A DNA stretch of 64,000 nt, from assembly GCA_965226465.1 (NCBI GenBank), contig OZ245362.1, positions 690,082-754,081 on the forward strand. Reading direction: 5' to 3'. Positions 19,037 through 61,840 of this stretch are shown piece by piece. A program made the position numbers and the translations under genes. How positions within the stretch are numbered: the stretch's first letter is position 1; the number at the start of each line of letters is the position of its first letter. The notes beneath the pieces were generated by a model, which was given only the letters and a program-made list of their open reading frames with translations, was not told where the DNA came from and did no database searches. This stretch comes from Parvibaculaceae bacterium (GTDB lineage Bacteria > Pseudomonadota > Alphaproteobacteria > RS24 > CBDDDD01).

Positions 19037-19894
19037 AGCATTATTGTTTTTTTTATTTTTTTCCTAAGCGTTCGGAGCAATTCATAGCATGCTAATTTTT
19101 TGGTAAAAGGCAATGTATCATTAGCAAAGATAAGTTTCCACAATAGACGGACAGGTAGATATTTTTCTCTATAAAAGGACATCCATTCTTTTTCTGTATA
19201 TGGCTGATATTTTTGAAACTCACGCTTACTGGACATAGCAAATTCTTTTAAGACTCCTTGCAGGTTAGATGATACGCCCCCCCCCCCGAAAACTGGCAAA
19301 ACTATTCTTTATAAAGACAATCTTTTTTCCATGAAGAATATGTTTTCTTATTAATTCATAATCGCTTGCTATTTTATATTTTTCGTTAAAGCCTCCCATA
19401 TCAAGGATGCACTTACGCTTAATGAGAAATCCCTCAGGTGGAAATGGAATAACACGGAGGGCTTTTTGTAGGCGAGGTTCGTGTATTACAATTTTCCCGC
19501 ATTCATCAATCTTATGAATTGCAGAAAAGACACCATCAATATTTTTTTCTTCAGTCATTTTTACTGCACGTGCGATACCTGTTTCATCATGATAGAAGTC
19601 ATCCGTACCCAAAATGAGAATATATTTTCCTGAAGCCAGATGAACACCGCGATTAAAAGCCTGATAGATACCACTATCTTTTTTGGAGAGATATTTTACA
19701 TTTTTATATTTCTGTGCATAAGCCTTGATATATTCAAGAGACCCATCCTGCGAATCACCATCAATAATAACATGCTCAATATCAGGATAGCTTTGCTGTT
19801 GCACCGATTGGCACATTTGCAAAAATGTTTCTTTTCTTTTTGCCTCAATAAAATTAAAAGAAGCAGTAACGATAGAGACTCTTGCTTGTTCCAT
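19027..19894 (-). pseudogene. family-2 glycosyltransferase interrupted by a frameshift in a G11 tract (coding strand); candidate phase-variable gene currently in the OFF frame
   Basis: ORF 19265-19894 has a GT2 N-terminal half (VSIVTASFN..., IIDGDSQDGS, GTDDFY) and ends ...FRGGGRII*. ORF 19027-19299 continues in another frame as ...FGGGGVSSNLQG.... The two frames meet in the homopolymer at 19277-19287. Confidence 0.7.
19277..19287. repeat. C11/G11 homopolymer, the longest mononucleotide run I found in the window
   Basis: Hand-counted from gatacg-ccccccccccc-gaaaac. A length of 10 or 13 would fuse the two glycosyltransferase ORFs. Confidence 0.85.
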
Positions 19895-21493: not shown

Positions 21494-22039
21494 TTATTGC
21501 TCTTCTGATGTAGATGGCTTCTCTTCTTTATTTTCATTAAGCTGACGAATACTTTCTTCATTAAGGCGTTTTTCTTCTGCCTCCTCTTTGGCAAGTTTTT
21601 CATTATCAAATTCCTGAATTTCACTTTTCAGGGTTGTAATCTCTTTGCATTTTTTACAAATTTTTTGCAAATGGGCGAGCTTATCCATTGCCTCTTCCCT
21701 TTCTCCAAGGGCAAGATTTGTCTTTGCCGCCCAGTGCCATAACTCAGAAACCGAAGGAGTAAGCGAAATGGCTTGAGCAAAATATCTTTTTGCATTTTCA
21801 TAATATTTTTGCTGATAGGCAGAATATCCTAAATAGCTAAAAGCTTCATCATTGGCAGGATTGGCGATAATTGCCTGCTCCAAAAGAATATCGCTTTGAG
21901 GGAAATATTTCTCCTCATACCACAACATGGCTTGGGCGGTGAGCTGTTTAGAAACTTCTGGCAGCGAAAGCGTCTGTGCAGAAACAGAAGATGCCATAAA
22001 AAACACAAGAAGCATGATATAGATAGGGAATATTCTCAT
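21494..22039 (-). CDS. secreted TPR-repeat protein with an acidic coiled-coil tail
   Basis: Signal peptide ([22 protein letters not shown]) and TPR-like A..Y...G.....Y..A periodicity. It sits between guaB and guaA. Confidence 0.5.
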   Translation of the reverse strand: MRIFPIYIMLLVFFMASSVSAQTLSLPEVSKQLTAQAMLWYEEKYFPQSDILLEQAIIANPANDEAFSYLGYSAYQQKYYENAKRYFAQAISLTPSVSELWHWAAKTNLALGEREEAMDKLAHLQKICKKCKEITTLKSEIQEFDNEKLAKEEAEEKRLNEESIRQLNENKEEKPSTSEEQ

Positions 22040-30589: not shown

Positions 30590-31978
30590 ATGAGTAAGAA
30601 ATGGACGATAGATAGCTGGCGCAAATTAGAAGCGCGACAAATGCCCCATTATGAGGATAAGGATGGTTTGGAAGCCGTTGAGGCTGAGCTTGCCAATTAT
30701 CCGCCTTTGGTATTTGCGGGTGAGGCGCGCAGTCTGCGCAGGAAGCTTGGCAGGGTTGCCAATGGCGAAGCCTTTTTATTACAGGGTGGTGATTGTGCCG
30801 AAAGCTTTGCCGAGCACCACGCCGACAAGGTACGCGACACCTTACGGGTTTTGCTACAAATGGCGATAGTATTGACCTTTGGAGCGGGATTGCCCGTTGT
30901 GAAAGTGGGGCGCATAGCGGGTCAATTTGCCAAGCCCCGCTCGGAAGATATAGAGACCCGCAACGGCACCACGCTTCCAAGCTATCGGGGTGATATCATC
31001 AATGATATTGCCTTTGAAGAGGAGGCAAGGAGGGCTGACCCACGCCGCCAAATATCCGCCTATCGCCAAGCTGCCAGCACATTGAACCTATTGCGAGCAT
31101 TTACGACAGGAGGCTTTGCCGATTTATCGCATGTCCATAGCTGGACAATGGGCTTTTTGGCAGACACCAAAGAGGGCGAACGCTATCAGGACTTAGCCTC
31201 TCAAATAGACCAATCCCTAGCCTTTATGCGCGCCTGTGGCATATCTTCGCAAACGACGCGCCAAATGCGCCAGGTTAGTTTTTACACAAGCCATGAAGCC
31301 TTATTACTAGGCTATGAGCAAGCCTTTACCCGCATAGATAGCACGACGGGCAACCCCTATGATACCAGTGCGCACATGGTATGGTGCGGGGATAGAACCC
31401 GCCAGCCTGACGGAGCGCATATAGAGTTTTTGCGTGGGATTTATAACCCGATAGGCATGAAATGCGGTCCCGGCATAGAAGCCGATGAGCTATTGCGCCT
31501 TATTGACATCCTAAACCCAGAAAATGATGCGGGAAGGCTAACCTTAATCTGCCGCTTTGGTGCGGATAAGATAGGCGATTACCTGCCCAAGCTCATCCGC
31601 AAAGTAGAAGGCGAAGGCAAGAAAGTAGTATGGTCCTGCGACCCGATGCATGGCAATACGATTAAGGCGAATAACGGATATAAAACCCGTCCGGTAGAGC
31701 GCATATTGCACGAGGTCAAAGATTTCATTGATATCCACAGCGCAGAAGGCAGCTATGCCGGCGGCGTCCATTTTGAAATGACAGGACAAAACGTCACCGA
31801 ATGCCTAGGCGGTGCCCAAGCCATAAAAGAAGAAGACCTCTCCAGCCGCTACCACACCCACTGCGACCCCCGACTAAACGCCAGCCAAGCCCTAGAGCTC
31901 GCCTTCCTAATAGCAGAAAAACTAAAACTCCAAAAAACCTCCACCCAAAAACCTACCAAAAACAAGGCAACCGCTTAG
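30590..31978 (+). CDS. aroG: class II 3-deoxy-D-arabino-heptulosonate-7-phosphate synthase
   Basis: 462 aa with [11 protein letters not shown] and the overall class II (plant/actinobacterial type) pattern. About 20 aa at the C terminus form a K/T/Q-rich extension. Confidence 0.85.
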
Positions 31979-31992
31979 GAAGGGACTATCCT

Positions 31993-34900
31993 TTGGAAAT
32001 AAGACCGTTTCTAAACGAAGTAATAAAAATCCATAAGACAGGCAAGGCGGGGGAGCATAGCTATCGCCCTGCAATTAAGGGTTTAGTAGAATCTTTTAGC
32101 CCTAAAATGAAAACTAACAAGATTATGGTTATTAATGAGCCAAAGGCAGTGGCATGTGGCGCACCTGATTTTAGCGTGCATTATGGCAAGGATGAGATAA
32201 CCATCGGGCATATTGAGGCAAAAGATATTGGGGTGGATATTCACAACCTGAAAGGCAAGAATGAAGAACAGCTTGAGCGGTATCGCAAGGCATTACCTAA
32301 TTTAGTCTATACGAATTGTCTGGATTGGAATTTTTATAAAGACGGAAAATTGGTGGAGCAGGTTTCTATAGGGAAACCGATAATGGGTATTCAGGCTGAG
32401 CAGGCAGAGTTTAGCCGTTTGCAAATGCTTTTGCGGGATTTCGTAGAGTCCCGCCCCATTTCCATTACCACCCCCGATGAGTTGGCAAAACGCATGGCAG
32501 GGAAGGCACGGCTGGTAAAGGAGATTTTGAAAAATATTTTACGGTCGGATGAAAAAAGTGATGAGCGTAGTGAATTGATAGATCATTATATTGCTTTTAA
32601 GGAAAACCTTATACAGGATATCAGCATAGAGCAGTTTTCGGATATTTATGCGGAGACGATTGCCTATGGCATGTTTGCCGCCAGATTGCATGATGATACT
32701 CCAGAAACTTTTTCCCGCCAAGAGGCACTAGATTTATTGCCGAAAAGCAATCCGTTTCTCCGTAAGTTTTTTACCTATATTTCAGGGCAAGATTTGGATG
32801 AGAGGATTAGGCGTATTATTGATGATTTGGTATCTATTTTCCTTGCTGCCAATGTAAAGAATCTTATGGAGCGATATGGCAAGGTTTATGGCAAGGATGA
32901 CCCCTTCTTGCATTTTTATGAAGATTTTCTAAGACATTATAATCCCGAAAAAAGAAAAGCGCGCGGGGTTTGGTATACGCCTATTGAGGTAGTGCGCTTT
33001 ATTGTTCGGGCAGTGGATGAGGTGTTGCAAAAAGAGTTTAATATATCCAAGGGATTGGCAGATAACAGAAAAATTACAATAAATTGGGATAGTGGGCAGA
33101 ATAATAAAAAGATAAAAAAAGAGGTGCATAAGGTGCAAATTCTTGACCCCGCTACAGGAACAGGGACTTTTTTGGCGGAAGCTATCAATCAGATTGCGCC
33201 GAAAATACAGAAAACCGCCAAAGGGCAGTGGGGCGGCTATGTTGTAGAGGATTTAATTCCCCGCCTGCATGGGTTTGAGTTGCTTATGGCATCTTATACG
33301 ATGTGCCATACCAAGCTGGATATGGTGCTTACCAATCTTGGTTATAAGCCCCCCAGCAACCCAAAGCGTATGCGTGTTTATCTCACGGATAGTCTGGAGG
33401 AGGGCAAGCCTGCTGACCAGACTCTTCCTTTTGCTAGATGGCTTTCTAAAGAGGCAAAAGGTGCCAATAAAATAAAACACGATATGCCGATTATGTGCGT
33501 TATCGGTAATCCGCCCTATTCAGGCGAAAGTCAGAATAAGAGCGATTGGATAATGAAGCTTATGGAGGCTTATAAAAAAGAGCCGGGTGGAAAGGAAAAG
33601 CTTAAAGAAAGGAATCCTAAATGGATTAATGATGATTATGTAAAGTTTATTCGGCTTGCCGAGCATTATATTGATAAAAACGGCGAGGGGGTTTTGGGTT
33701 TTATTACCGCTCATGGCTATTTGGATAATCCGACCTTTCGGGGTATGCGCTGGCATTTGCGCAAGACATTTGACAAGATTTATGTGCTGGATTTGCATGG
33801 TAATGCCAAAAGAAAAGAGGTTTGTCCTGATGGTTCACCCGACAAAAATGTTTTTGATATTCAGCAGGGCGTGGCGATATTGATTGCGGTGAAAAAGAAA
33901 GACAGCAAAGGCAGACAGGCTGATGTTTATCACAGCGGGTTATGGGGTAAAAGAGAGGTTAAACAGGAGGCATTAGAGCAAAAAACTCTGCATGATAAGG
34001 ATTGGAAAAAGCTTAGTCCTAACAAGCCTTTTTATTTCTTTATTCCCCGCAATGATAAATTAGAGGGGCAATATCAGCAGGGCTTTAGCATAAAAGAATT
34101 TATGCCAGAAAACTCGGTTGGCATTGCTACCGCAAGAGATGGTTTTTGCATAGATTATAAGAAAAAGGTGATTGAAGCACGCCTTAAAGACCTTCGCACG
34201 GAAACAGATATTGAAGTTTTACGTAATAAATATCATTTGAGAAAGGATGTTCGGGATTGGAGTGTAGCCGGTGCAAAAAAAGATGTAGAGCAAAATTTTC
34301 AAACAGGGAAATTGACCAAACTTGCTTATCGCCCCTTTGACACGCGCTGGACGTTCTATACTGGAAATTCAAAAGGGTTTCACTGTATGCCGCGCGGTGC
34401 AATCATGCGGCATATGCTGGAAGGTGAGAATTTAGCTATGCTCATTTCTAGAAGTGCTGCAGGAGAAAAAAATTGGAAAGAGGTGCAATGCACGAATAAA
34501 ATTGTTGAATTTGGTATTATGTCAACACGCCCTGGCAATGCTACTCCATTATTTCCCCTCTATCTTTATGATGAGGTAGATGGTTCTAAGCGTGTTAATT
34601 TTGATAAGAAAATCTATGCAAAGATTCAAAAGAAGGGTGCAGATAAGAAGCATGGCACACCTGATGAAATGGCGGTTTTTGATTATATTTATGGGGTGTT
34701 GCATTGCCCCGATTATCGGCAAATTTATAAGGATTTTTTGAAATCGGATTTTCCGCATATTCCCTATCCAAGCAGTGCAAAAGAGTTTTGGGAGATTGCC
34801 GATAAGGGCGGGCAATTGCGCTCACTTCATTTAATGGAGGAGAAGGCTATCGGTGAAACCCCCTATCCCTTTGAGGGCGAAGGCAGTAGCAAGGTGGTAA

Positions 34901-35130
34901 AAATCCAATATAAAAATGAGCAGGTTTGGATTAATGACACGCAATTTTTTGCAAAGGTGCCGGAGATGGCATGGGAGTTCTATATAGGGGGTTATCAGCC
35001 TGTGCAAAAATGGCTTAAAGCCCGCAAGGGGCAGAAATTATCCTTTAATGATATTTGCCATTATCAGAAAATTATCAAAATTCTTGTGGAAACTGACCGC
35101 ATTATGAAAACCATAAAAATCACCCCATAG
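31993..35130 (+). CDS. single-polypeptide PD..ExK nuclease-like head + gamma-class N6-adenine DNA methyltransferase + Type-ISP-like C-terminal specificity module; no helicase (Type IIG/IIL-like RM or orphan MTase)
   Basis: P-D at 32164-32169 and E-A-K at 32215-32223. SAM motif I DPATGTGTF at 33145-33171 and motif IV NPPY at 33508-33519. The C-terminal blocks YRPFDTRW, FDYIYGVLHCPDYRQIY and GGYQPVQKWLKAR parallel the 1555-aa Type ISP protein. I propose a TTG start at 31993, 7 nt after the AGGAAGGGA Shine-Dalgarno-like sequence. The ORF-track ATG at 31801 lies inside aroG. Confidence 0.8.
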   Translation: MEIRPFLNEVIKIHKTGKAGEHSYRPAIKGLVESFSPKMKTNKIMVINEPKAVACGAPDFSVHYGKDEITIGHIEAKDIGVDIHNLKGKNEEQLERYRKALPNLVYTNCLDWNFYKDGKLVEQVSIGKPIMGIQAEQAEFSRLQMLLRDFVESRPISITTPDELAKRMAGKARLVKEILKNILRSDEKSDERSELIDHYIAFKENLIQDISIEQFSDIYAETIAYGMFAARLHDDTPETFSRQEALDLLPKSNPFLRKFFTYISGQDLDERIRRIIDDLVSIFLAANVKNLMERYGKVYGKDDPFLHFYEDFLRHYNPEKRKARGVWYTPIEVVRFIVRAVDEVLQKEFNISKGLADNRKITINWDSGQNNKKIKKEVHKVQILDPATGTGTFLAEAINQIAPKIQKTAKGQWGGYVVEDLIPRLHGFELLMASYTMCHTKLDMVLTNLGYKPPSNPKRMRVYLTDSLEEGKPADQTLPFARWLSKEAKGANKIKHDMPIMCVIGNPPYSGESQNKSDWIMKLMEAYKKEPGGKEKLKERNPKWINDDYVKFIRLAEHYIDKNGEGVLGFITAHGYLDNPTFRGMRWHLRKTFDKIYVLDLHGNAKRKEVCPDGSPDKNVFDIQQGVAILIAVKKKDSKGRQADVYHSGLWGKREVKQEALEQKTLHDKDWKKLSPNKPFYFFIPRNDKLEGQYQQGFSIKEFMPENSVGIATARDGFCIDYKKKVIEARLKDLRTETDIEVLRNKYHLRKDVRDWSVAGAKKDVEQNFQTGKLTKLAYRPFDTRWTFYTGNSKGFHCMPRGAIMRHMLEGENLAMLISRSAAGEKNWKEVQCTNKIVEFGIMSTRPGNATPLFPLYLYDEVDGSKRVNFDKKIYAKIQKKGADKKHGTPDEMAVFDYIYGVLHCPDYRQIYKDFLKSDFPHIPYPSSAKEFWEIADKGGQLRSLHLMEEKAIGETPYPFEGEGSSKVVKIQYKNEQVWINDTQFFAKVPEMAWEFYIGGYQPVQKWLKARKGQKLSFNDICHYQKIIKILVETDRIMKTIKITP

Positions 35131-36454
35131 TCACCAACTCCTCCCCCGCCGTAGGATGAACGGCAAGGGTTTTGTCAAAATCCGCCTTTGTCGCCCCCAT
35201 AGTGACGGCGACCCCAAAGGCTTGGATCATTTCGCCAGCATCCGCTCCCATAATATGCAATCCCAGCACAATATCGGACTTGGCATCAACGACAAGCTTC
35301 ATGAAGCATTTTTCATCCCGCCCCGATAAGGTGTGTTTCATCGGACGGAATGTGGAGGAAAATATTTTCACCTCGCCCCGCTCCCGTGCCTGCACCTCCG
35401 TAAGCCCAATGGTCCCAAGTCCGGGCTGAGTAAAAACCGCAGAAGGAATAGTTTCATGCGAGATAGGCGTTTTTTTCCCACCATATAACGTATTGGCAAA
35501 AGCAGACCCTTCCACAATGGCAATGGGCGTCAAAGCCACCCGATTTGTGACATCTCCCACCGCATAAATATTGTCAATATTGGAGCGGGAATATTCATCC
35601 ACCACAACCTCGCCCCTTTCCCCCATTTGCACCCCCACCCCAGAAAGCCCCATTTTCTCAGTATTCGGAATACGCCCCGTTGCATATAATACAGCATCCG
35701 CCGCAATAACCTCGCCCCCTTCCACATGAACCTCCCTTGCAGCCGTAATCTTGCGGATATCCGCCTTTACACGAACCGATATCCCCTGCTTTTCCATCTC
35801 CAAATGAATGAGCTTTCGCAAATCATCATCAAACCCCCGCAAAATTTCCTCTCCCCGATACAGCAAATCCACCCCCGCCCCCAGCCCCGCAAATATACAA
35901 GCAAACTCAACCGCAATATATCCCCCCCCCACAATGACAATTCTTTTAGGAAGTGCGGGAAGGTCAAATATCTCATTGGAAGTAAGCGCATATTCCACCC
36001 CCTCAATTTCAGGCAAAAAAGGTCTGGCACCGGTAGCAATAAGAATAGTTTCTGCACTGACTATCTTACCCCCACATTGCACCTCATGAGGGCTTTTGAA
36101 AACAGCCCGATGGTGCAGAAGCTCCACTTTAGCTTTTTCAAGATTTTTTATATATATCGCATTCAGCCTTTCAATCTCTTTATCCTTTGCGGAAACAAGC
36201 TTTTTCCATGAGAACTCCGCCTTTGGCACCGACCACCCAAACCCCTCCGCATCCTTAAAATCATGAGAAAAATGAGAAGCATAAACATAAAGCTTTTTAG
36301 GCACACAGCCCCTAATAACGCATGTTCCGCCCACTTTATGCTCTTCTGCAATGGCGGTTTTTGCCCCAAACCCCGCCGCCATGCGCGCCGCCCGCACCCC
36401 GCCTGAGCCGGCACCGATAACAAATAAATCATAATCATATTTCATGAAACCCAT
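35120..36454 (-). CDS. gor: glutathione-disulfide reductase
   Basis: DLFVIGAGSGG FAD motif, redox-active GGTCVIRGCVPKK, the second Rossmann motif VGGGYIAVE and the C-terminal HPT.GEE motif. The start is either 36454 or 36445. Confidence 0.8.
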   Translation of the reverse strand: MGFMKYDYDLFVIGAGSGGVRAARMAAGFGAKTAIAEEHKVGGTCVIRGCVPKKLYVYASHFSHDFKDAEGFGWSVPKAEFSWKKLVSAKDKEIERLNAIYIKNLEKAKVELLHHRAVFKSPHEVQCGGKIVSAETILIATGARPFLPEIEGVEYALTSNEIFDLPALPKRIVIVGGGYIAVEFACIFAGLGAGVDLLYRGEEILRGFDDDLRKLIHLEMEKQGISVRVKADIRKITAAREVHVEGGEVIAADAVLYATGRIPNTEKMGLSGVGVQMGERGEVVVDEYSRSNIDNIYAVGDVTNRVALTPIAIVEGSAFANTLYGGKKTPISHETIPSAVFTQPGLGTIGLTEVQARERGEVKIFSSTFRPMKHTLSGRDEKCFMKLVVDAKSDIVLGLHIMGADAGEMIQAFGVAVTMGATKADFDKTLAVHPTAGEELVTMG

Positions 36455-36473: not shown

Positions 36474-37343
36474 TTATCCAATCTCAAAACTTGTCAGCCC
36501 AAAGCTTTTCTGAAGCTGAATATCGGGCGGAGGAGAAGCCGTATACATGCGCGCCGTTTGAAAAACCTCCCTCCAGCCCAACTCTGTGACGAGACTTTGA
36601 GCATTTTTATTCGGCTCAGGAACATCAAGAAACACCGGCGCATCTTTTGGCAATGGCGCACAAACCTCATGCAATAAACCTCTGGCAATAGGGACATTAT
36701 CAGCAAAAAGCGGCGCGATTTTATACCCCCGCTTACAAGGACGAGCAAGCACATACCCGCTCACCGCCCCCTTTTCATCAAAGGCAACATGAACAGATGC
36801 TTTGGGTATGGATAACCAATTAGCAAGAAAGTTTTTCCGACTAGCTGGAAAAAAGCCCTTATCATAATGGAGAACACCCCCAAACCTATCCTTTTCATAC
36901 GCTATGATATTTTCCCCATGCACAAATTGACTCACATCCCCCGCCTTCCCCTCAAATCGGATAGTATTATGCGCAAAGATAAACCCTGACTTTTTGTAAT
37001 TATACTGCTGCTCCACCACCCCATCCAACCCAATAAGATGATTGCTGAGATAACCCATAGCATGGTTCCAAAGCTGTATCCCAAAGCCCTTTGAGCGATA
37101 TTCAGGCGTAACAATATAAAGCCCCAAAAACCCAAAATTACTCCCCCATTTAACCGCACTAATAGCCCCAATAGGAATATCATTCATTGTACTGATAAAA
37201 AACCCCTTCGGGTCAGCAGAGAAAAAAGCCTTAGCATCATAAGGAGACGGATTCCACCCTTCCCCCTCCGCCCAATCAATAATGGTCGCAACCTCCTCCA
37301 AAGAAGCAACATGAATTTCCGCCCGCATACTTTGTCTCTCCAT
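36474..37343 (-). CDS. GNAT-family N-acetyltransferase with an extra C-terminal domain
   Basis: 289 aa with an acetyl-CoA-binding-like segment V.PEYRSKGFG. Substrate unknown. Confidence 0.55.
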   Translation of the reverse strand: MERQSMRAEIHVASLEEVATIIDWAEGEGWNPSPYDAKAFFSADPKGFFISTMNDIPIGAISAVKWGSNFGFLGLYIVTPEYRSKGFGIQLWNHAMGYLSNHLIGLDGVVEQQYNYKKSGFIFAHNTIRFEGKAGDVSQFVHGENIIAYEKDRFGGVLHYDKGFFPASRKNFLANWLSIPKASVHVAFDEKGAVSGYVLARPCKRGYKIAPLFADNVPIARGLLHEVCAPLPKDAPVFLDVPEPNKNAQSLVTELGWREVFQTARMYTASPPPDIQLQKSFGLTSFEIG

Positions 37344-56162: not shown

Positions 56163-56636
56163 ATGGAAAAAGTACCAATGACTCCTCGCGGGCATAAGGT
56201 TCTGGAGGAGGAGTTACGCAAGCTTAAAACACAGGCTCGCCCCGATGTGATACGGGCGATAGCCACGGCACGCGAGCATGGCGATTTATCCGAAAACGCC
56301 GAATACCACGCCGCAAAAGAGCAGCAAGGGCATATAGAGGGCAGGATTTTGGAGCTTGAGGGCGTATTGGGGCGCGCCGAGATTATTGACGCCGCCCAGC
56401 TAAGCGGCAATAGCGTAAAATTTGGAGCAACCCTATTGGTCGTGGATGAGGACACCGAAGAGGAAAAATCCTACCAGATAGTAGGCGACTTTGAAGCCGA
56501 CGTAAAAGAAGGACGCATCTCCATAAGCTCCCCCGTCGCCCGCGCCTTCATCGGCAAAAAAGTAGGCGACAGCATAGAAGTCACCACCCCCGGCGGCGGC
56601 AAATGCTACGAAATTCTAAAAATCAACTTTAAGTAA
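56163..56636 (+). CDS. greA: transcription elongation factor GreA
   Basis: 157 aa with [18 protein letters not shown] and the C-terminal segment ISISSP.ARA..GK..GD. Confidence 0.9.
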
Positions 56637-56682: not shown

Positions 56683-59600
56683 ATGTCATCATTTCGGGAA
56701 ATACTTGACAGGCTACGCAGCCAAGCCCGCACTGAGCGCGACAAGGGCAGCTATTTTGAAAAATTAATGATAGCGGTTTTACAGCAACACCCGGAATATG
56801 ATTTTAGGGGCGTTTGGAGCTGGAAGGACTGGCCAGAAAGAGAAAAGTTATCTGGAATGGATGCCAAAGATATTGGCATAGATCTTGTTGGCAAGAACGC
56901 TGATGGTAAGCTTTGTGCCATTCAGTGCAAATTTTTTGCAGAAGATTATGCGTTACAAAAAAAAGATATTGATAGTTTTTTCACGGAGTCAGGCAAGAAG
57001 CCTTTCACTAGCCGCCTAATTATTACGACAACGGATAAATGGAGTGATAATGCTAAGAAAGCACTGCAGGGGCAGCAGATTGAAACCCACCGCATGCGTT
57101 TTATGGATTTACAAAAGCTCCCCATTGACTGGGATTTATTACACCCGGAGCGGACAAAATATAAGCCTAAAAAGCACAAGTTAAAAAAGCGCCAGCAGGA
57201 AGCCTTAGAGCATGTGATTGAGGGATTTAAAAAGGATAAGCGCGGGCGGTTGATAATGGCTTGCGGTACGGGGAAGACCTTAACTTCATTGCATATTGCC
57301 GAGAAGCTGGTTTCCAATAAGGGGAACATATTACTGATGGTGCCTTCCATAGGGCTAATGTCACAGACATTACATGAATGGGCAGAGCAGCGCAGTGAGG
57401 ATCAGCGTTATTTAGCGGTATGCTCAGATGCGCAAGTGGATAAGAGGGAAGAAGACATCACCTTGGAAGACTTGGCTATTCCCGCGACCACAAAGGCAGA
57501 AAAGATTCATAAGGTTTTGTCAGCGAAGGAAAACCGCAGGACTGTTGTATTATGCACCTATCACTCGCTTGATAGGATAAAACAGGCGCAGGATAAGGGT
57601 GCGCCCAAATTTGACTTGGTGATTTGTGATGAAGCCCACCGCACGACGGGAATAGAGGGCAGTCTTTTTTCCAAAATTAACCATGAGGATTATATCAAGG
57701 CGGATAAGCGGCTTTATATGACGGCAACGCCTCGTATTTATACGGAGGAAGCAAAGGCAAAGGCGAAGGAGAAGGATATTGGCGTATTTTCTATGGATGA
57801 TAAGAGCGCTTATGGTCCCCAGTTTTATCGCTTGGATTTCTCAGATGCGGTGGCGGAAAACTTATTATCCGATTACAAAGTGATTATATTAAATGTCAAT
57901 AAAGAATACGTCCACAAAGAGATGCAGGCATTAATAAGCAAGGGCGATAACGAGTTTCCCCTTGATGATATAGCTAAGATTATTGGTTGTTATAAGGGTT
58001 TGCGCGACCAAGGAGAGGGTAAGAAAGGCACATTTCTCAAACGCGCAGTGATGTTTGCCCAGAACATAAAAATATCAAAGCATTTATCAAAGCAGTTTAA
58101 GCATGTTGTAGATGTGCTGGATGAAAAAGAAAACGATAACTTTACCTGTAATACCGAGCATGTTGACGGAAGCTATGGCTCATTGGAAAGAAGCCGCCTT
58201 TTGGATTGGCTGGAGCAGGACGCCGGCAGTAATGAACACGGAGAAATTTGTAATATCCTCTCCAACGTTCGCTGTTTAACGGAAGGGATAGACGTGCCAT
58301 CACTGGACGCCGTGCTGTTTATGCACCCGCGCCAGTCGCAAGTTGATGTGGTGCAGGCGGTGGGACGCGTGATGAGACGGGCGGAGGGCAAGGACTATGG
58401 CTATATCATATTGCCTGTAGCAATCTCAGCAGGGGCTTCTATAGATGAGACATTAAACAGCAATGAATATAAAAAGGTTTGGGCTGTCTTAAATGCGCTT
58501 CGCTCTCATGATAACCGCTTTAATGCCATGATTAACAAGGTGGACTTAAACGATAAAAAGCCCAAAGCAATAAGCGTTATCGGGGTAGGCTTTGGGAGCG
58601 ATGATGATGATGATGAAAAAATTAAAAAGGAGATAGAACAGCAGATAGGTTTTAATTTTGGGGAATTACAAAATGCTGTTTATGCCAAGACTGTTGAAAA
58701 ATGCGGCAACCGCAAATATTGGGAAAGCTGGGCAAAAGATGTAGCAGGTATATATAAAGAAATTGAAAGCCTAATTGAAACATTGCGTAAAAAAAATGAG
58801 CAGTTTCTAAAAACCTATAATGATTTTCTTGACAGCATAAAGCGCAATATCAACACCTCGCTTACCAATGAAGATGCCACCTCTATGCTGGCACAGCATT
58901 TAATTACCAAGCCTGTTTTTGATGCCCTTTTTAAGGAATATAAGTTTTCTGAAAAAAATCCTGTTTCGCAAAGCATGGGCAAAGTGCTTGATGAACTTTA
59001 TAGCTTTGGCTTGAAAGCTGAACTGGAGAAACTTCAAAGCTTTTACAAAAGCGTAGAAGACAGAGCCTCCAATATTGATAATGCCGAAGGACGGCAAAAA
59101 GTAATCATTGAACTTTATGAAAAGTTTTTCAAAACCGCCTTCCCAAAAGTAGCGGAGAGGCAGGGCATCGCCTATACACCGATTGAGATTGTAGACTTTA
59201 TATTGGCAAGCGCCGACAAAGCATTACAGCAAGAGTTTGGACAGAGTCTTTCGGATAAAAACGTCCACATCATTGACCCCTTTACAGGCACAGGAACTTT
59301 CATCAACCGCCTTATCCAAAATAAGGATTTAATTCAGAAAAAGGACATAAAACATAAATTTGAAAATGAGATTCACGCCAATGAGATTTTACTTCTCGCC
59401 TATTACATCGCCTCCGTGAATATTGAAGAATCCTATCATGGCAGACAGCAAGAGAACAAAGACTATGAAACGTTTAAAGGCATTGTGCTAACCGATACAT
59501 TTAATCTCCACGAAAAAGCAGGCGAAGATAAAGGCTCATTGGAAGAGAAGATGTTTCTTGAAAATAATGCCCGCTTAATACGCCAACGTGCAGCACCAAT

Positions 59601-61350
59601 AAAGGTAATCGTCGGCAACCCCCCTTGGTCAGTAGGGCAGAAATCTGAAAATGATGATGCACAAAATATCAGTTATCCCAAGCTGGATGAAAGCATTGAA
59701 AACAGCTATGCCAAAAAGTCAAAAGCAACACTGAAATCAGCTCTTTATGATAGCTATATTCGTTCCTTCCGCTGGGCATCGGACCGCATAGGCGAGAAGG
59801 GTGTAATCGCTTTTGTTAGCAATGGCGGTTGGCTGGATGGTAGTAGCACGGATGGGTTCCGCCAATCATTGGCAGAAGAGTTTGATGCGATATGGGTTTT
59901 TAATGCCCGTGGCAATGCACGGCTATCGGGTGAAGCATGGCGTAAAGAGGGAGATAAAATATTTGGTCAATCAAGCCGCGCACCGGTGGCTTTCACCATA
60001 TTGGTTAAAAATCCTCAAAAGAAACGTGCAATAGCCGATATTCACTATCACGATATTGGTGATTATTTAAGTCGCAAAGAGAAGCTTGAAAAAATCGTAA
60101 AAGCCAAAGATATTACAGGGCTGGAATGGCAGAAAATTACCCCCAATAAAGAAAATGACTGGATAAACCAGCGCGACCCACTATTTCAAAAATTTAAAGC
60201 ATTGGGCAGTAAAGATGTCAAAGCGGGAAAACGTGCAGCGCCTGATACAATTTTTAGAACCTATAGTCGTGGCATTATGACCTGTCGTGATGCATGGGTT
60301 TACAATTTCAGCAAGAAAAAGCTTTCTGAAAATATGCAGACTATGATTGGCTTTTACAATGAACAAGTGAAAGCTTTCCAAAAAACCCCTAATGGTTTTG
60401 TTGTAGATAATAATCCCAGTAAAATAAGCTGGGATGGTACTCTCAAAGATGATTTGAAAAATAATTCCGCTGGTCATTTTGATAGAAAAAATATCAGGCA
60501 GTCATTATATAGACCTTTTACGCATGAATGGCTATATTTTAACCGCCAGTTTAGCAATCGTGTCTATAGAATGCCTTCTCTTTTTCCTGAGGCTGACACG
60601 GATAATCGGGCAATAGTTATTACTGGCATGGGAGCAGCTAAGGATTTTTCAGCTCTTATTTCAGGATATGTTTCAGAGGTTCAGCTTTTAAGTAATGCAC
60701 AATGCTTTCCCCGCTATTTTTGGCAAGAGGGAGAGCGAGAGGATAATATCCCCAATACAACGCTCAAAGAGTTTCGCACCAAATATAAGGATGACAGCAT
60801 CACAGGCGATGATATTTTTGATTATGTTTATGGAATACTCCACGCCCCCGATTATCAAAAACGCTTTGCCAATGATTTAAAAAAAGAACTGGCACGCATA
60901 CCCCTTGCCAAAGACTTCACCTCCTTCCGCAACGCAGGGCGTGCTTTAGCAAAATTACACCTCAACTTTGAACAAGCAGAAGAATACCCACTTAATATTT
61001 TGGTAAATAATAAGCCCGCCTTGCCGGATATCCTCAAACAAGACTACACCGTAACAAAAATGAAATGGCATAAAGAAGATAAAACCAAACTCATCTATAA
61101 CAACCAAATATCCCTATCCAATATCCCCGAACAAGCCCTCCGCTATCAGGTTTCAGGACGCCCTGCCCTGCAATGGATTATAGACCGCTATCAGCTAAAA
61201 CTTGATAAAGCCAGTCAAATTACCAATGACCCCAATGACTGGATTAAAGAGCAAAACGACCCCCAATGGCTCATTAAGCACATTAAGCGCATCACCTATA
61301 TCAGCGTAGAAAGCACAAAAATTATTGAGGCTCTACCAAAGGCACTATAA
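56683..61350 (+). CDS. Type ISP restriction-modification enzyme (Mrr-like nuclease + SF2 DEAH translocase + N6-adenine methyltransferase + TRD in one polypeptide)
   Basis: Nuclease core D67 (56881-56883) ... Q81-x-K83 (56923-56931). Walker A ACGTGKT at 57259-57279 and DEAH at 57628-57639. Also TATP, QAVGRVMR, MTase motif I DPFTGTGTF at 59275-59301 and NPPW at 59617-59628. The C-terminal blocks are shared with the 31993-35130 product. Confidence 0.85.
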   Translation: MSSFREILDRLRSQARTERDKGSYFEKLMIAVLQQHPEYDFRGVWSWKDWPEREKLSGMDAKDIGIDLVGKNADGKLCAIQCKFFAEDYALQKKDIDSFFTESGKKPFTSRLIITTTDKWSDNAKKALQGQQIETHRMRFMDLQKLPIDWDLLHPERTKYKPKKHKLKKRQQEALEHVIEGFKKDKRGRLIMACGTGKTLTSLHIAEKLVSNKGNILLMVPSIGLMSQTLHEWAEQRSEDQRYLAVCSDAQVDKREEDITLEDLAIPATTKAEKIHKVLSAKENRRTVVLCTYHSLDRIKQAQDKGAPKFDLVICDEAHRTTGIEGSLFSKINHEDYIKADKRLYMTATPRIYTEEAKAKAKEKDIGVFSMDDKSAYGPQFYRLDFSDAVAENLLSDYKVIILNVNKEYVHKEMQALISKGDNEFPLDDIAKIIGCYKGLRDQGEGKKGTFLKRAVMFAQNIKISKHLSKQFKHVVDVLDEKENDNFTCNTEHVDGSYGSLERSRLLDWLEQDAGSNEHGEICNILSNVRCLTEGIDVPSLDAVLFMHPRQSQVDVVQAVGRVMRRAEGKDYGYIILPVAISAGASIDETLNSNEYKKVWAVLNALRSHDNRFNAMINKVDLNDKKPKAISVIGVGFGSDDDDDEKIKKEIEQQIGFNFGELQNAVYAKTVEKCGNRKYWESWAKDVAGIYKEIESLIETLRKKNEQFLKTYNDFLDSIKRNINTSLTNEDATSMLAQHLITKPVFDALFKEYKFSEKNPVSQSMGKVLDELYSFGLKAELEKLQSFYKSVEDRASNIDNAEGRQKVIIELYEKFFKTAFPKVAERQGIAYTPIEIVDFILASADKALQQEFGQSLSDKNVHIIDPFTGTGTFINRLIQNKDLIQKKDIKHKFENEIHANEILLLAYYIASVNIEESYHGRQQENKDYETFKGIVLTDTFNLHEKAGEDKGSLEEKMFLENNARLIRQRAAPIKVIVGNPPWSVGQKSENDDAQNISYPKLDESIENSYAKKSKATLKSALYDSYIRSFRWASDRIGEKGVIAFVSNGGWLDGSSTDGFRQSLAEEFDAIWVFNARGNARLSGEAWRKEGDKIFGQSSRAPVAFTILVKNPQKKRAIADIHYHDIGDYLSRKEKLEKIVKAKDITGLEWQKITPNKENDWINQRDPLFQKFKALGSKDVKAGKRAAPDTIFRTYSRGIMTCRDAWVYNFSKKKLSENMQTMIGFYNEQVKAFQKTPNGFVVDNNPSKISWDGTLKDDLKNNSAGHFDRKNIRQSLYRPFTHEWLYFNRQFSNRVYRMPSLFPEADTDNRAIVITGMGAAKDFSALISGYVSEVQLLSNAQCFPRYFWQEGEREDNIPNTTLKEFRTKYKDDSITGDDIFDYVYGILHAPDYQKRFANDLKKELARIPLAKDFTSFRNAGRALAKLHLNFEQAEEYPLNILVNNKPALPDILKQDYTVTKMKWHKEDKTKLIYNNQISLSNIPEQALRYQVSGRPALQWIIDRYQLKLDKASQITNDPNDWIKEQNDPQWLIKHIKRITYISVESTKIIEALPKAL

Positions 61351-61366
61351 AAAACACCCTCTCCCC

Positions 61367-61840
61367 TTACTCAATCGGAACACCCGGCAACGCTTTTGAG
61401 CAGCGAATGGTCAAAGAGGTTTTTACACTGGCAACATTGGGAGCGGGCGTCAGCTTTTGCGTCAGAAATTTCTGAAAATCTTCAAGGTCAGGAGCAACGC
61501 ATTTCAATATGAAATCTATCTCGCCATTGAGCATATGACACTCCCGAACTTGCGGCCATTGTGTGCAAAGCTTTTCAAATTTTTTCAAATCATCTTCCGC
61601 TTGCGAGTGCAGGCTTACCATAGCAAAGACGCTCACCTTAAAGCCGAGCTTTTGTGCATTCAACTGTGCATGATATCCCTCAATAAGCTTCTCTTTTTCC
61701 AGAACACGCACACGGCGCAAGCAGGGCGGTGCCGATATGCCTACTTTTTCGGCAAGCTTTACATTGGTAATTTTCCCCTGCGCTTGAAGTGTTGCAAGAA
61801 TTTTATGATCAAGCTTGTCTAATTTCATCTTCTTTGCCAT
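61367..61840 (-). CDS. lrp: Lrp/AsnC-family transcriptional regulator
   Basis: 157 aa with LD..D.KIL..LQ..G+.....LA..VG+S...C.RR+..LE HTH and a C-terminal RAM/AsnC_trans_reg domain. Confidence 0.8.
   Translation of the reverse strand: MAKKMKLDKLDHKILATLQAQGKITNVKLAEKVGISAPPCLRRVRVLEKEKLIEGYHAQLNAQKLGFKVSVFAMVSLHSQAEDDLKKFEKLCTQWPQVRECHMLNGEIDFILKCVAPDLEDFQKFLTQKLTPAPNVASVKTSLTIRCSKALPGVPIE

Follow-up and report, generated by a model that had tools for sequence, protein, structure and literature searches.

The general properties of restriction–modification (RM) enzymes of Type IIG and Type IIL are described in PMC3874165. DrdV is a structurally and biochemically characterised Type IIL enzyme, whose cleavage is licensed by assembly, and its authors called its methyltransferase (MTase) and recognition domains 'highly similar' to their counterparts in LlaGI and LlaBIII (bioRxiv 10.1101/2021.01.06.425610). 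DrdV originates from Deinococcus wulumuqiensis (PDB 7lo5/7lvv), comprises 1029 aa, recognises CATGNAC and cuts 10/8. Its chain combines a PD-ExK nuclease, a helical connector, a gamma-MTase starting at residue 295 and a target recognition domain (TRD), with neither a motor nor partner genes. Members of the MmeI family, the prototype of Type IIL, likewise unite an N-terminal D...ExK nuclease, a gamma-MTase and a TRD in one chain; they modify a lone DNA strand and have no partner methylase (PMC3874165). [quoted passage not shown] Instead of cutting at a fixed distance, these enzymes translocate at the expense of ATP and cleave once they collide. In Borrelia burgdorferi, the products of bbq67 (plasmid lp56) and bbe02 (plasmid lp25) modify and restrict DNA in vivo (PMC11546952); these genetic findings are given here as related in the citing papers PMC11546952 and PMC12811465.

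Here we describe a single gene for a protein of this kind from an alphaproteobacterial contig. The window, i.e. the whole stretch of 64,000 nucleotides that was analysed, also encodes a true Type ISP enzyme.

Results

The gene, in the following RM gene, is located between aroG and gor and encodes a product of 1045 aa (RM protein, Table 1). Its reading frame is neither truncated nor disrupted, starts with TTG and ends with TAG (35128-35130). The start codon is backed by a Shine-Dalgarno-like AGGAAGGGA 7-8 nt upstream, which partially overlaps the aroG stop codon (31976-31978), and by the matching N-termini of 35 homologues. An ORF in the same frame that extends further upstream, to 31801, overlaps with aroG and was considered spurious.

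Table 1 Features of the RM gene and its flanks; positions refer to the window
Feature	Position	Strand	Basis
aroG, class II DAHP synthase, upstream flank	30590..31978	+	Pfam DAHP_synth_2, E 1.5e-211
Shine-Dalgarno-like AGGAAGGGA	31977..31985	+	Read directly from sequence
RM gene CDS, 1045-aa single-chain Type IIL/IIG enzyme (predicted)	31993..35130	+	ORF, motifs, PADLOC, full-length homologues
PD-(D/E)xK endonuclease domain, residues 1-155	31993..32457	+	AF2 model, Foldseek, conservation
PD, residues 58-59	32164..32169	+	
D59, candidate catalytic residue	32167..32169	+	
EAK, residues 75-77 (E75 and K77 candidate catalytic residues)	32215..32223	+	
Helical connector, residues 156-299	32458..32889	+	All-helical in AF2 model; co-linear with DrdV connector
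Gamma-class N6-adenine DNA methyltransferase, residues 300-640	32890..33912	+	Pfam, motifs, alignments to the LlaBIII, LlaGI and DrdV MTase domains
MTase motif I, DPATGTGTF, residue 385	33145..33171	+	
MTase motif IV, NPPY, residue 506	33508..33519	+	
[quoted passage not shown]
Type_ISP_C (PF18135), residues 702-1039	34096..35109	+	E 1.6e-85
gor, convergent glutathione-reductase-like flavoprotein, downstream flank	35120..36454	-	Pfam Pyr_redox_2 and Pyr_redox_dim

A preliminary description of this DNA had divided the protein into a PD-(D/E)xK nuclease, a helical linker, a gamma-MTase and a Type-ISP-like TRD without a motor. Our analysis supports this parsing, and the coordinates given there for PD, EAK, DPATGTGTF, NPPY and the overlap with gor were all correct. 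Profile-HMM searches matched the MTase domain to N6_Mtase (E 2e-12) and Eco57I (E 5e-7) and the C-terminus to Type_ISP_C; no helicase domain was matched, and the Pfam search of the protein returned neither ResIII nor Helicase_C, ISP_coupler or Mrr_cat_2. A motif scan of the whole protein was negative for Walker A and DEAH, in agreement with the earlier statement, and also for DExH.

The C-terminal region had been described as co-linear with the 1555-aa Type ISP enzyme of the window (56683-61350). The four blocks named for this region (LDLHGNAKRKE, YRPFDTRW, FDYIYGVLHCPDYRQIY and GGYQPVQKWLKAR) are all found in the protein, and BLASTP aligned both enzymes over residues 224-1041 of the RM protein (23% identity, E 3e-43). 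Among solved structures, sequence searches retrieved LlaBIII (E 9e-38), LlaGI (E 6e-34) and DrdV (7lo5), the last over residues 116-960, which excludes the nuclease head. The MTase and the TRD (Type_ISP_C) of Type ISP enzymes are therefore homologous and co-linear features common to the RM protein, whereas the Mrr-like nuclease, the SF2 ATPase and the coupler are all absent from it. The true ISP enzyme in the window matches Mrr_cat_2 at E 4e-41.

When the first 160 residues were compared with the PDB by sequence profile, no nuclease was matched, and the nuclease domain was therefore placed by structure comparison. The AF2 model of residues 1-160 is confident (pLDDT 92, pTM 0.87), and its best Foldseek matches are the DrdV nuclease chains 7lvv_C/D (TM 0.63-0.72, E 4e-7), followed by BpuSI (E 0.017) and the EcoR124I HsdR nuclease. 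The nuclease fold suggested previously for this domain is thus borne out by the model. The only profile match of the same residues, a weak one to 2l97 (PDB, 'putative serine protease', E 0.0034), was treated as chance. The full-length model is of moderate quality (pLDDT 70, pTM 0.45), with the MTase core as its weakest part. For this model Foldseek again ranked DrdV first, with a match along its entire length (E 3e-28), and LlaGI/LlaBIII, BrxX and MmeI came behind it; the global TM-score to DrdV is low (0.19) because the placement of the domains in the model is unreliable.

More than 8000 homologues were found. Among the best 120, identity is 56-62%, the alignment spans 93-100% of the query, and nearly all are ~1045 aa long. 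Products of the homologues are named 'type ISP restriction/modification enzyme' at NCBI. In an alignment of 36 homologues, P58, E75, A76 and K77 are invariant and D59 is kept in 35, so that the candidate catalytic residues are conserved. DPATGTGTF and NPPY are invariant as well, and the MTase is the most conserved domain (mean identity 73%). Residues 641-700 and 791-885 are the most variable (36-37% identity), a pattern expected for specificity-determining regions. The best PADLOC model is PDLC03610 REase_MTase_IIG (Type IIG; 978 bits, E 1.4e-294), and the second-best, PDLC03631, reaches 343 bits over residues 17-1014. Three homologues inspected in other genomes are solitary, located in integrase-bearing islands or beside Abi or toxin-antitoxin genes, and no partner M, S or helicase gene was found around them.

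A 1086-aa RM protein encoded on lp56 of B. burgdorferi B31 shows 32% identity to the RM protein over residues 11-1041. In the alignment its nuclease head keeps the E-x-S-x-R, PD and E-x-K motifs, Type_ISP_C is present in both proteins, and PDLC03610 is again the best PADLOC model, with the weaker models in the same rank order. The lp56 protein differs in that it belongs to another phylum, is plasmid-borne and has a divergent TRD; therefore its specificity presumably differs from that of the RM protein. As bbq67 is the sole RM gene listed for lp56, we infer that it is the gene matched.

The RM protein and DrdV are of similar length and have the same order of domains, with ~19-20% identity in the structural alignment. 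DrdV is the best structural match for the full-length model and for the nuclease domain alone. The resemblance to the MmeI family is more distant: MmeI_Mtase scored 24.7 bits, under the 27-bit cut-off of Pfam, the N-terminal, helicase-spacer, TRD and C-terminal domains of MmeI had no match in the RM protein, and Foldseek placed MmeI (5hr4) at E 3e-3 only. Membership in the MmeI family was therefore rejected.

The neighbourhood of the RM gene comprises nadE, aroG, gor, a GNAT gene and rpiA. Only 14 nt separate the RM gene from aroG, and its overlap of 11 nt with gor, which is convergent to it (35120-35130), is real, as noted before. No separate methylase or specificity subunit gene is present among these neighbours, which is not odd, because enzymes of Type IIL are expected to work without a partner methylase. 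No terminator-like site was found between aroG and the RM gene, and in the promoter and terminator scan the counts equalled the shuffled expectation. We infer that the RM gene is co-transcribed with aroG.

With a G+C content of 41.5% (GC3 41.9%) the RM gene has the third lowest value among 49 ORFs (z = -1.7), compared to 51.5% in aroG, 49.4% in gor and 46.6% in the window. The A/T-richness reported earlier was thus right in its direction, but the size of the difference had been overestimated (33-38% against 60% in aroG). In the flanks we detected neither repeats, as had been stated, nor att-like sites; the search returned just short matches within the gene, which were attributed to chance. The host is a poorly sampled marine-type alphaproteobacterial lineage. 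In 80 of 80 related loci the aroG-gor junction lacks the RM gene, and in one of them (L005) aroG and gor are directly convergent; the nearest relatives in this survey, judged by aroG, reach at best 75% identity (genome contigs) and 71% (metagenome contigs). The proposed insertion of a single gene is thereby supported as a lineage-specific addition. Absence of the gene from this junction in the nearest relatives fits its horizontal acquisition.

Discussion

The RM gene very probably encodes a functional, horizontally acquired, single-polypeptide RM enzyme of Type IIL, a subclass of Type IIG, as predicted from sequence comparison and structural models. Judged on the same grounds, the RM protein belongs with the bbq67/bbe02-type enzymes of Borrelia, and its closest solved structure is that of DrdV. 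The preliminary description had considered a self-contained RM or defence gene, and this is the best reading. Its main proposal, an architecture of no characterised prototype, does not hold, since DrdV has the same architecture and PDLC03610 is already a Type IIG profile. Characterised homologues, which that description had named as grounds for refutation, exist at the level of the family, but none is close, because identities are 32% to the Borrelia protein and about 20% to DrdV. As this kind of RM enzyme is large in number and already characterised, we see no new architecture here and regard the RM gene as an ordinary defence gene that was acquired. The labels 'Type_ISP_C' and 'type ISP restriction/modification enzyme' are routinely given to motor-less Type IIL enzymes, and such naming can mislead into seeing a hybrid architecture.

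The RM protein could also be an epigenetic N6-adenine methyltransferase, either domesticated or orphan, with an unused nuclease head and a role in host methylation only, such as gene regulation in a small genome. The tight packing among housekeeping genes (14-nt gap, no terminator, 11-nt overlap with gor) would be consistent with this, as would the lack of mobile-element scars and the location on a contig of at least 1.38 Mb with a composition that is only mildly atypical. However, tight insertion alone does not entail a loss of restriction. The gene shows no truncation or frame disruption, D59, E75, K77 and the conserved nuclease residues around them are as intact as in the homologues, and the model of the N-terminal domain shows a well-formed nuclease of the DrdV type, so that we judge a pure methylase to be improbable.

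Even less can be said for a derivation from a Type ISP enzyme that has degenerated and lost its translocase through a deletion. The strong Type_ISP_C match, the sequence matches to LlaBIII and LlaGI, the NCBI name of the homologues and the true Type ISP gene within the same window seem to speak for such an origin, but the nuclease head is DrdV-like and not an ISP Mrr_cat_2 (PD-QxK) domain, no remnant of an ISP_coupler or helicase is left, and the RM protein is just 23% identical to the ISP enzyme of the window. The ISP models PDLC03597 and PDLC03051 score 186 and 160 bits compared to 978 bits for PDLC03610. Since the best 120 homologues, which cover 93-100% of the query, are nearly all of the same length, the protein represents a stable family and no one-off deletion. 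For practical purposes these findings refute a Type ISP derivative, and we consider it highly improbable. A methyltransferase belonging to a multi-gene defence system, as an analogue of BREX PglX, DISARM DrmMI or MADS MAD2, is hardly more credible. Weak profile matches to all three and Foldseek matches to BrxX/PglX (E 1e-4) point in this direction, but the profile scores are far under the family cut-offs (MAD2 24 bits with a cut-off of 720 bits; PglX E 0.016; DrmMI E 0.023), no BREX, DISARM or MADS partner is present among the neighbours, and the homologues in other genomes are solitary, too. This assignment was rejected.

For a Type IIL enzyme, the mode of action can be proposed from homology. 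The TRD and the MTase domain would clamp a short asymmetric recognition sequence, and the MTase would flip a single adenine into its NPPY pocket for methylation from SAM. Only one strand would be modified in this way, which may slowly protect the sites of the host. The N-terminal PD-ExK domain would contribute a single catalytic site, held on the flexible helical connector. Domain-swapped dimers may grow into trimers or tetramers; therefore foreign DNA with many unmodified sites would be cut quickly, while isolated hemi-modified or unmodified sites of the host would be methylated instead of cut. Neither ATP and a translocase nor a partner methylase or specificity subunit would be needed for this.

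The bbq67-like clade (PDLC03610) has thousands of members, but we came across neither a solved structure nor a published cleavage geometry for any of them. These enzymes might depart from DrdV, for example in how far away they cut, in how oligomers license cleavage or in whether one site is required. That the clade indeed uses another mechanism, or that the RM gene acts mainly as an epigenetic methylase in a compact genome, appears unlikely to us, and if true, either would represent a variant within Type IIL and not a new class.

Taken as a predicted Type IIL enzyme, the RM protein adds one member from a poorly sampled lineage and has little import beyond annotation. If expressed, it may extend the Type IIL toolbox with a new specificity, which would be an incremental gain.

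Results

Reading frame, motifs and composition

The N-termini of 35 homologues line up with the TTG start of the RM gene, which is preceded by a Shine-Dalgarno-like sequence; a longer in-frame ORF from 31801 runs over the aroG 3' end and is not credible. Sequence checks placed the nuclease and MTase motifs at the positions given in the preliminary description, and its four C-terminal blocks (LDLHGNAKRKE, YRPFDTRW, FDYIYGVLHCPDYRQIY and GGYQPVQKWLKAR) were all recovered. Neither a Walker A nor a DEAH/DExH pattern occurs in the whole protein, in line with the proposed absence of a translocase. The claimed co-linearity with the 1555-aa protein of the same window was also borne out (RM residues 224-1041, 23% identity, E 3e-43). 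The gene is A/T-rich as described, but the extent had been overstated: its G+C content is 41.5%, below that of aroG (51.5%), gor (49.4%) and the window as a whole (46.6%), and ranks third lowest among 49 window ORFs (z = -1.7). The two lowest ORFs, both more atypical in composition than the RM gene, flank guaA, with the TPR gene lying between guaA and guaB (IMPDH).

Features of the window and of the compared loci (unprefixed coordinates refer to the window)
Feature	Position	Strand	Remarks
RM gene	31993 (TTG) to 35128-35130 (TAG)	+	1045 aa
Shine-Dalgarno-like AGGAAGGGA	31977-31985	+	upstream of TTG
PD	32164-32169	+	nuclease head
EAK	32215-32223	+	nuclease head
DPATGTGTF	33145-33171	+	MTase
NPPY	33508-33519	+	MTase
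GNAT acetyltransferase gene	36474-37343	-	Acetyltransf_18, Acetyltransf_1
Family-2 glycosyltransferase gene	19265-19894	-	36.0% G+C, z = -3.4
guaA	19934-21484
TPR protein gene	21494-22039	-	38.6% G+C, z = -2.6
greA	56163-56636
Type ISP RM gene, complete	56683-61350	+	1555 aa; Mrr_cat_2, ResIII, Helicase_C, ISP_coupler, N6_Mtase, Type_ISP_C
AsnC/Lrp regulator gene	61367-61840
DUF374 gene	L001 9382-10137	-	251 aa; fills aroG-gor spacer
AbiEi/AbiEii and SocA_Panacea-domain genes	L081 3972-5652 and 9692-10243		beside RM homologue
Tyrosine integrase gene	L082 1762-2946		RM homologue directly downstream
Tyrosine integrase gene	L084 4594-5829		RM homologue directly downstream

Family assignment

Pfam assigned Type_ISP_C (residues 702-1039, E 1.6e-85), N6_Mtase and Eco57I to the RM protein and gave no match within residues 1-300. 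PADLOC placed it in the Type IIG RM family PDLC03610 (E 1.4e-294, 978 bits); PDLC03631, also a Type IIG model (343 bits), and the ISP-type models PDLC03597 (186 bits) and PDLC03051 (160 bits) scored far lower. The protein database holds at least 8000 homologues. Among the best 120 of these, from Alpha-, Beta- and Gammaproteobacteria, identity is 56-62% and query coverage 93-100%, reaching 99-100% in 117. The RM protein thus belongs to a large and stable family whose members lack a motor, rather than being a one-off fusion or deletion. The best 120 are annotated as 'type ISP restriction/modification enzyme' or 'N-6 DNA methylase'. The first of these names, which NCBI apparently took over from the Pfam domain Type_ISP_C, is carried by motor-less proteins of ~1045 aa (homologues P0004, P0013, P0058 and P0103, plasmid matches H3-H15), while JGI lists some as 'predicted helicase'; both names mislead, since these proteins have no ATPase.

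A tblastn search against plasmids returned 211 records, eight of which match over the full length with 50-57% identity (Agrobacterium, Pseudomonas, Paracoccus, Thioclava, Roseinatronobacter, Acinetobacter). Residues 11-1041 are also matched, at ~32-33% identity, by many linear plasmids of Borrelia. On lp56 of B. burgdorferi B31 the matching CDS encodes 1086 aa and bears the annotation 'type ISP restriction/modification enzyme'. Its product can be aligned across the nuclease head, where PD and ExK are conserved, carries Type_ISP_C and scores best with PDLC03610 (806 bits), the weaker models being ordered as for the RM protein. As bb_q67 is the single RM gene of lp56 in REBASE-based tables (PMC12811465), we infer from this listing that the match is probably bbq67. 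Both bbq67 and bbe02 are reported to modify as well as restrict DNA (PMC11546952).

Nuclease head and whole-protein comparison

P58, E75, A76 and K77 are invariant across 36 aligned members of the family and D59 is kept in 35, the lone exception being E; E21, H22, Y24, R25, N48, P50, Q93, R96 and Y97 are also invariant. Sequence profiles alone gave no link from the N-terminal head to DrdV-type nucleases. The AlphaFold2 model of residues 1-160 is confident (pLDDT 92, pTM 0.87), with an alpha-alpha-beta-beta-beta-alpha-beta core in which D59 opens one strand and E75/K77 close the next. Its Foldseek matches in the PDB were the DrdV endonuclease-domain chains 7lvv_C/D (E 4e-7, TM 0.63-0.72), followed by the Type IIG enzyme BpuSI (E 0.017, TM 0.48) and the EcoR124I HsdR nuclease (E 0.035, TM 0.36). 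Model, DrdV match and conserved residues together support the proposed PD-(D/E)xK nature of the head.

By sequence, the PDB matches were LlaBIII (E 9e-38, residues 293-1008), DrdV (7lo5, E 4e-34, residues 116-960) and LlaGI. AF2 modelled the full-length protein with moderate confidence (pLDDT 70, pTM 0.45); the best Foldseek match of this model is DrdV over the whole chain (E 3e-28), with LlaGI/LlaBIII (~1e-20), BrxX/PglX (~1e-4) and MmeI (3e-3) weaker. The model's unreliable inter-domain geometry keeps global TM-scores low, and the structural assignment therefore leans on the domain-level match of the nuclease head.

Genomic neighbourhood

The gene order is nadE (-), the class II DAHP synthase gene 'aroG' (+), RM gene (+), gor (-), GNAT gene (-) and rpiA (-). 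The RM gene is tightly packed, with a 14-nt gap on one side and, as described, an 11-nt overlap with gor on the other. The best aroG matches in the genome and metagenome collections reach 75% (Rhodobiaceae MAG) and 69-71% (Parvibaculales MAGs, metagenome contigs). The order nadE-aroG-gor-rpiA is shared by the four nearest relatives (L001, L002, L003, L005). In L005 nothing separates aroG from gor, two convergent genes that overlap by 4 nt, and in L001-L003 they are ~0.8 kb apart, the L001 spacer gene being unrelated to the RM gene; the junction is thus variable within the group. No RM homologue lies near aroG in any of 80 genome loci, and no flanking repeats, integrase or tRNA were found at the insertion. 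The GNAT gene separates gor from rpiA, which are directly adjacent in all four relatives, and looks like a second lineage-specific insertion adjoining the RM locus.

The Type ISP gene stands alone between greA and the AsnC/Lrp regulator gene and is also A/T-rich (42.0% G+C). Given only 23% identity between their products, it and the RM gene were acquired independently.

Discussion

The RM protein is a predicted Type IIL/IIG enzyme of known kind, close to DrdV and bbq67, and the domain interpretation and the reading as a self-contained RM gene were right. However, the architecture does not lack a characterised prototype, since DrdV (recognition CATGNAC, cut 10/8; bioRxiv 10.1101/2021.01.06.425610) is exactly this combination of a IIG-like head and an ISP-like body without the motor; its authors describe a strong resemblance of its MTase and recognition domains to those of LlaGI and LlaBIII. 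Type IIG enzymes are gamma-class MTases with N-terminal cleavage domains, found in ~40% of genomes and numbering up to 20 per Borrelia burgdorferi strain, and MmeI-type ('Type IIL') enzymes do not require an accompanying methylase (Loenen et al., PMC3874165).

The homologues beside AbiEi/AbiEii and SocA_Panacea-domain genes (L081) or integrases (L082, L084) have no partner M, S or helicase gene next to them, and these settings indicate that they are carried by defence islands or integrative elements. Taken with the absence of the gene from the relatives' junctions and the modest A/T bias of its sequence, such settings fit horizontal acquisition. The insertion is probably not recent.

By analogy to DrdV and Type IIL enzymes, TRD and MTase would bind an asymmetric site, flip out one adenine and methylate it on one strand. 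Attached through a flexible connector, the single-site nuclease would cut at a fixed distance only once several site-bound molecules assemble, so that multi-site foreign DNA would be cut while lone unmodified host sites would be methylated instead. Across the homologues, identity is highest in the MTase domain (73%) and lowest in TRD segments 641-700 and 791-885 (36-37%), as would be expected had specificity diversified.
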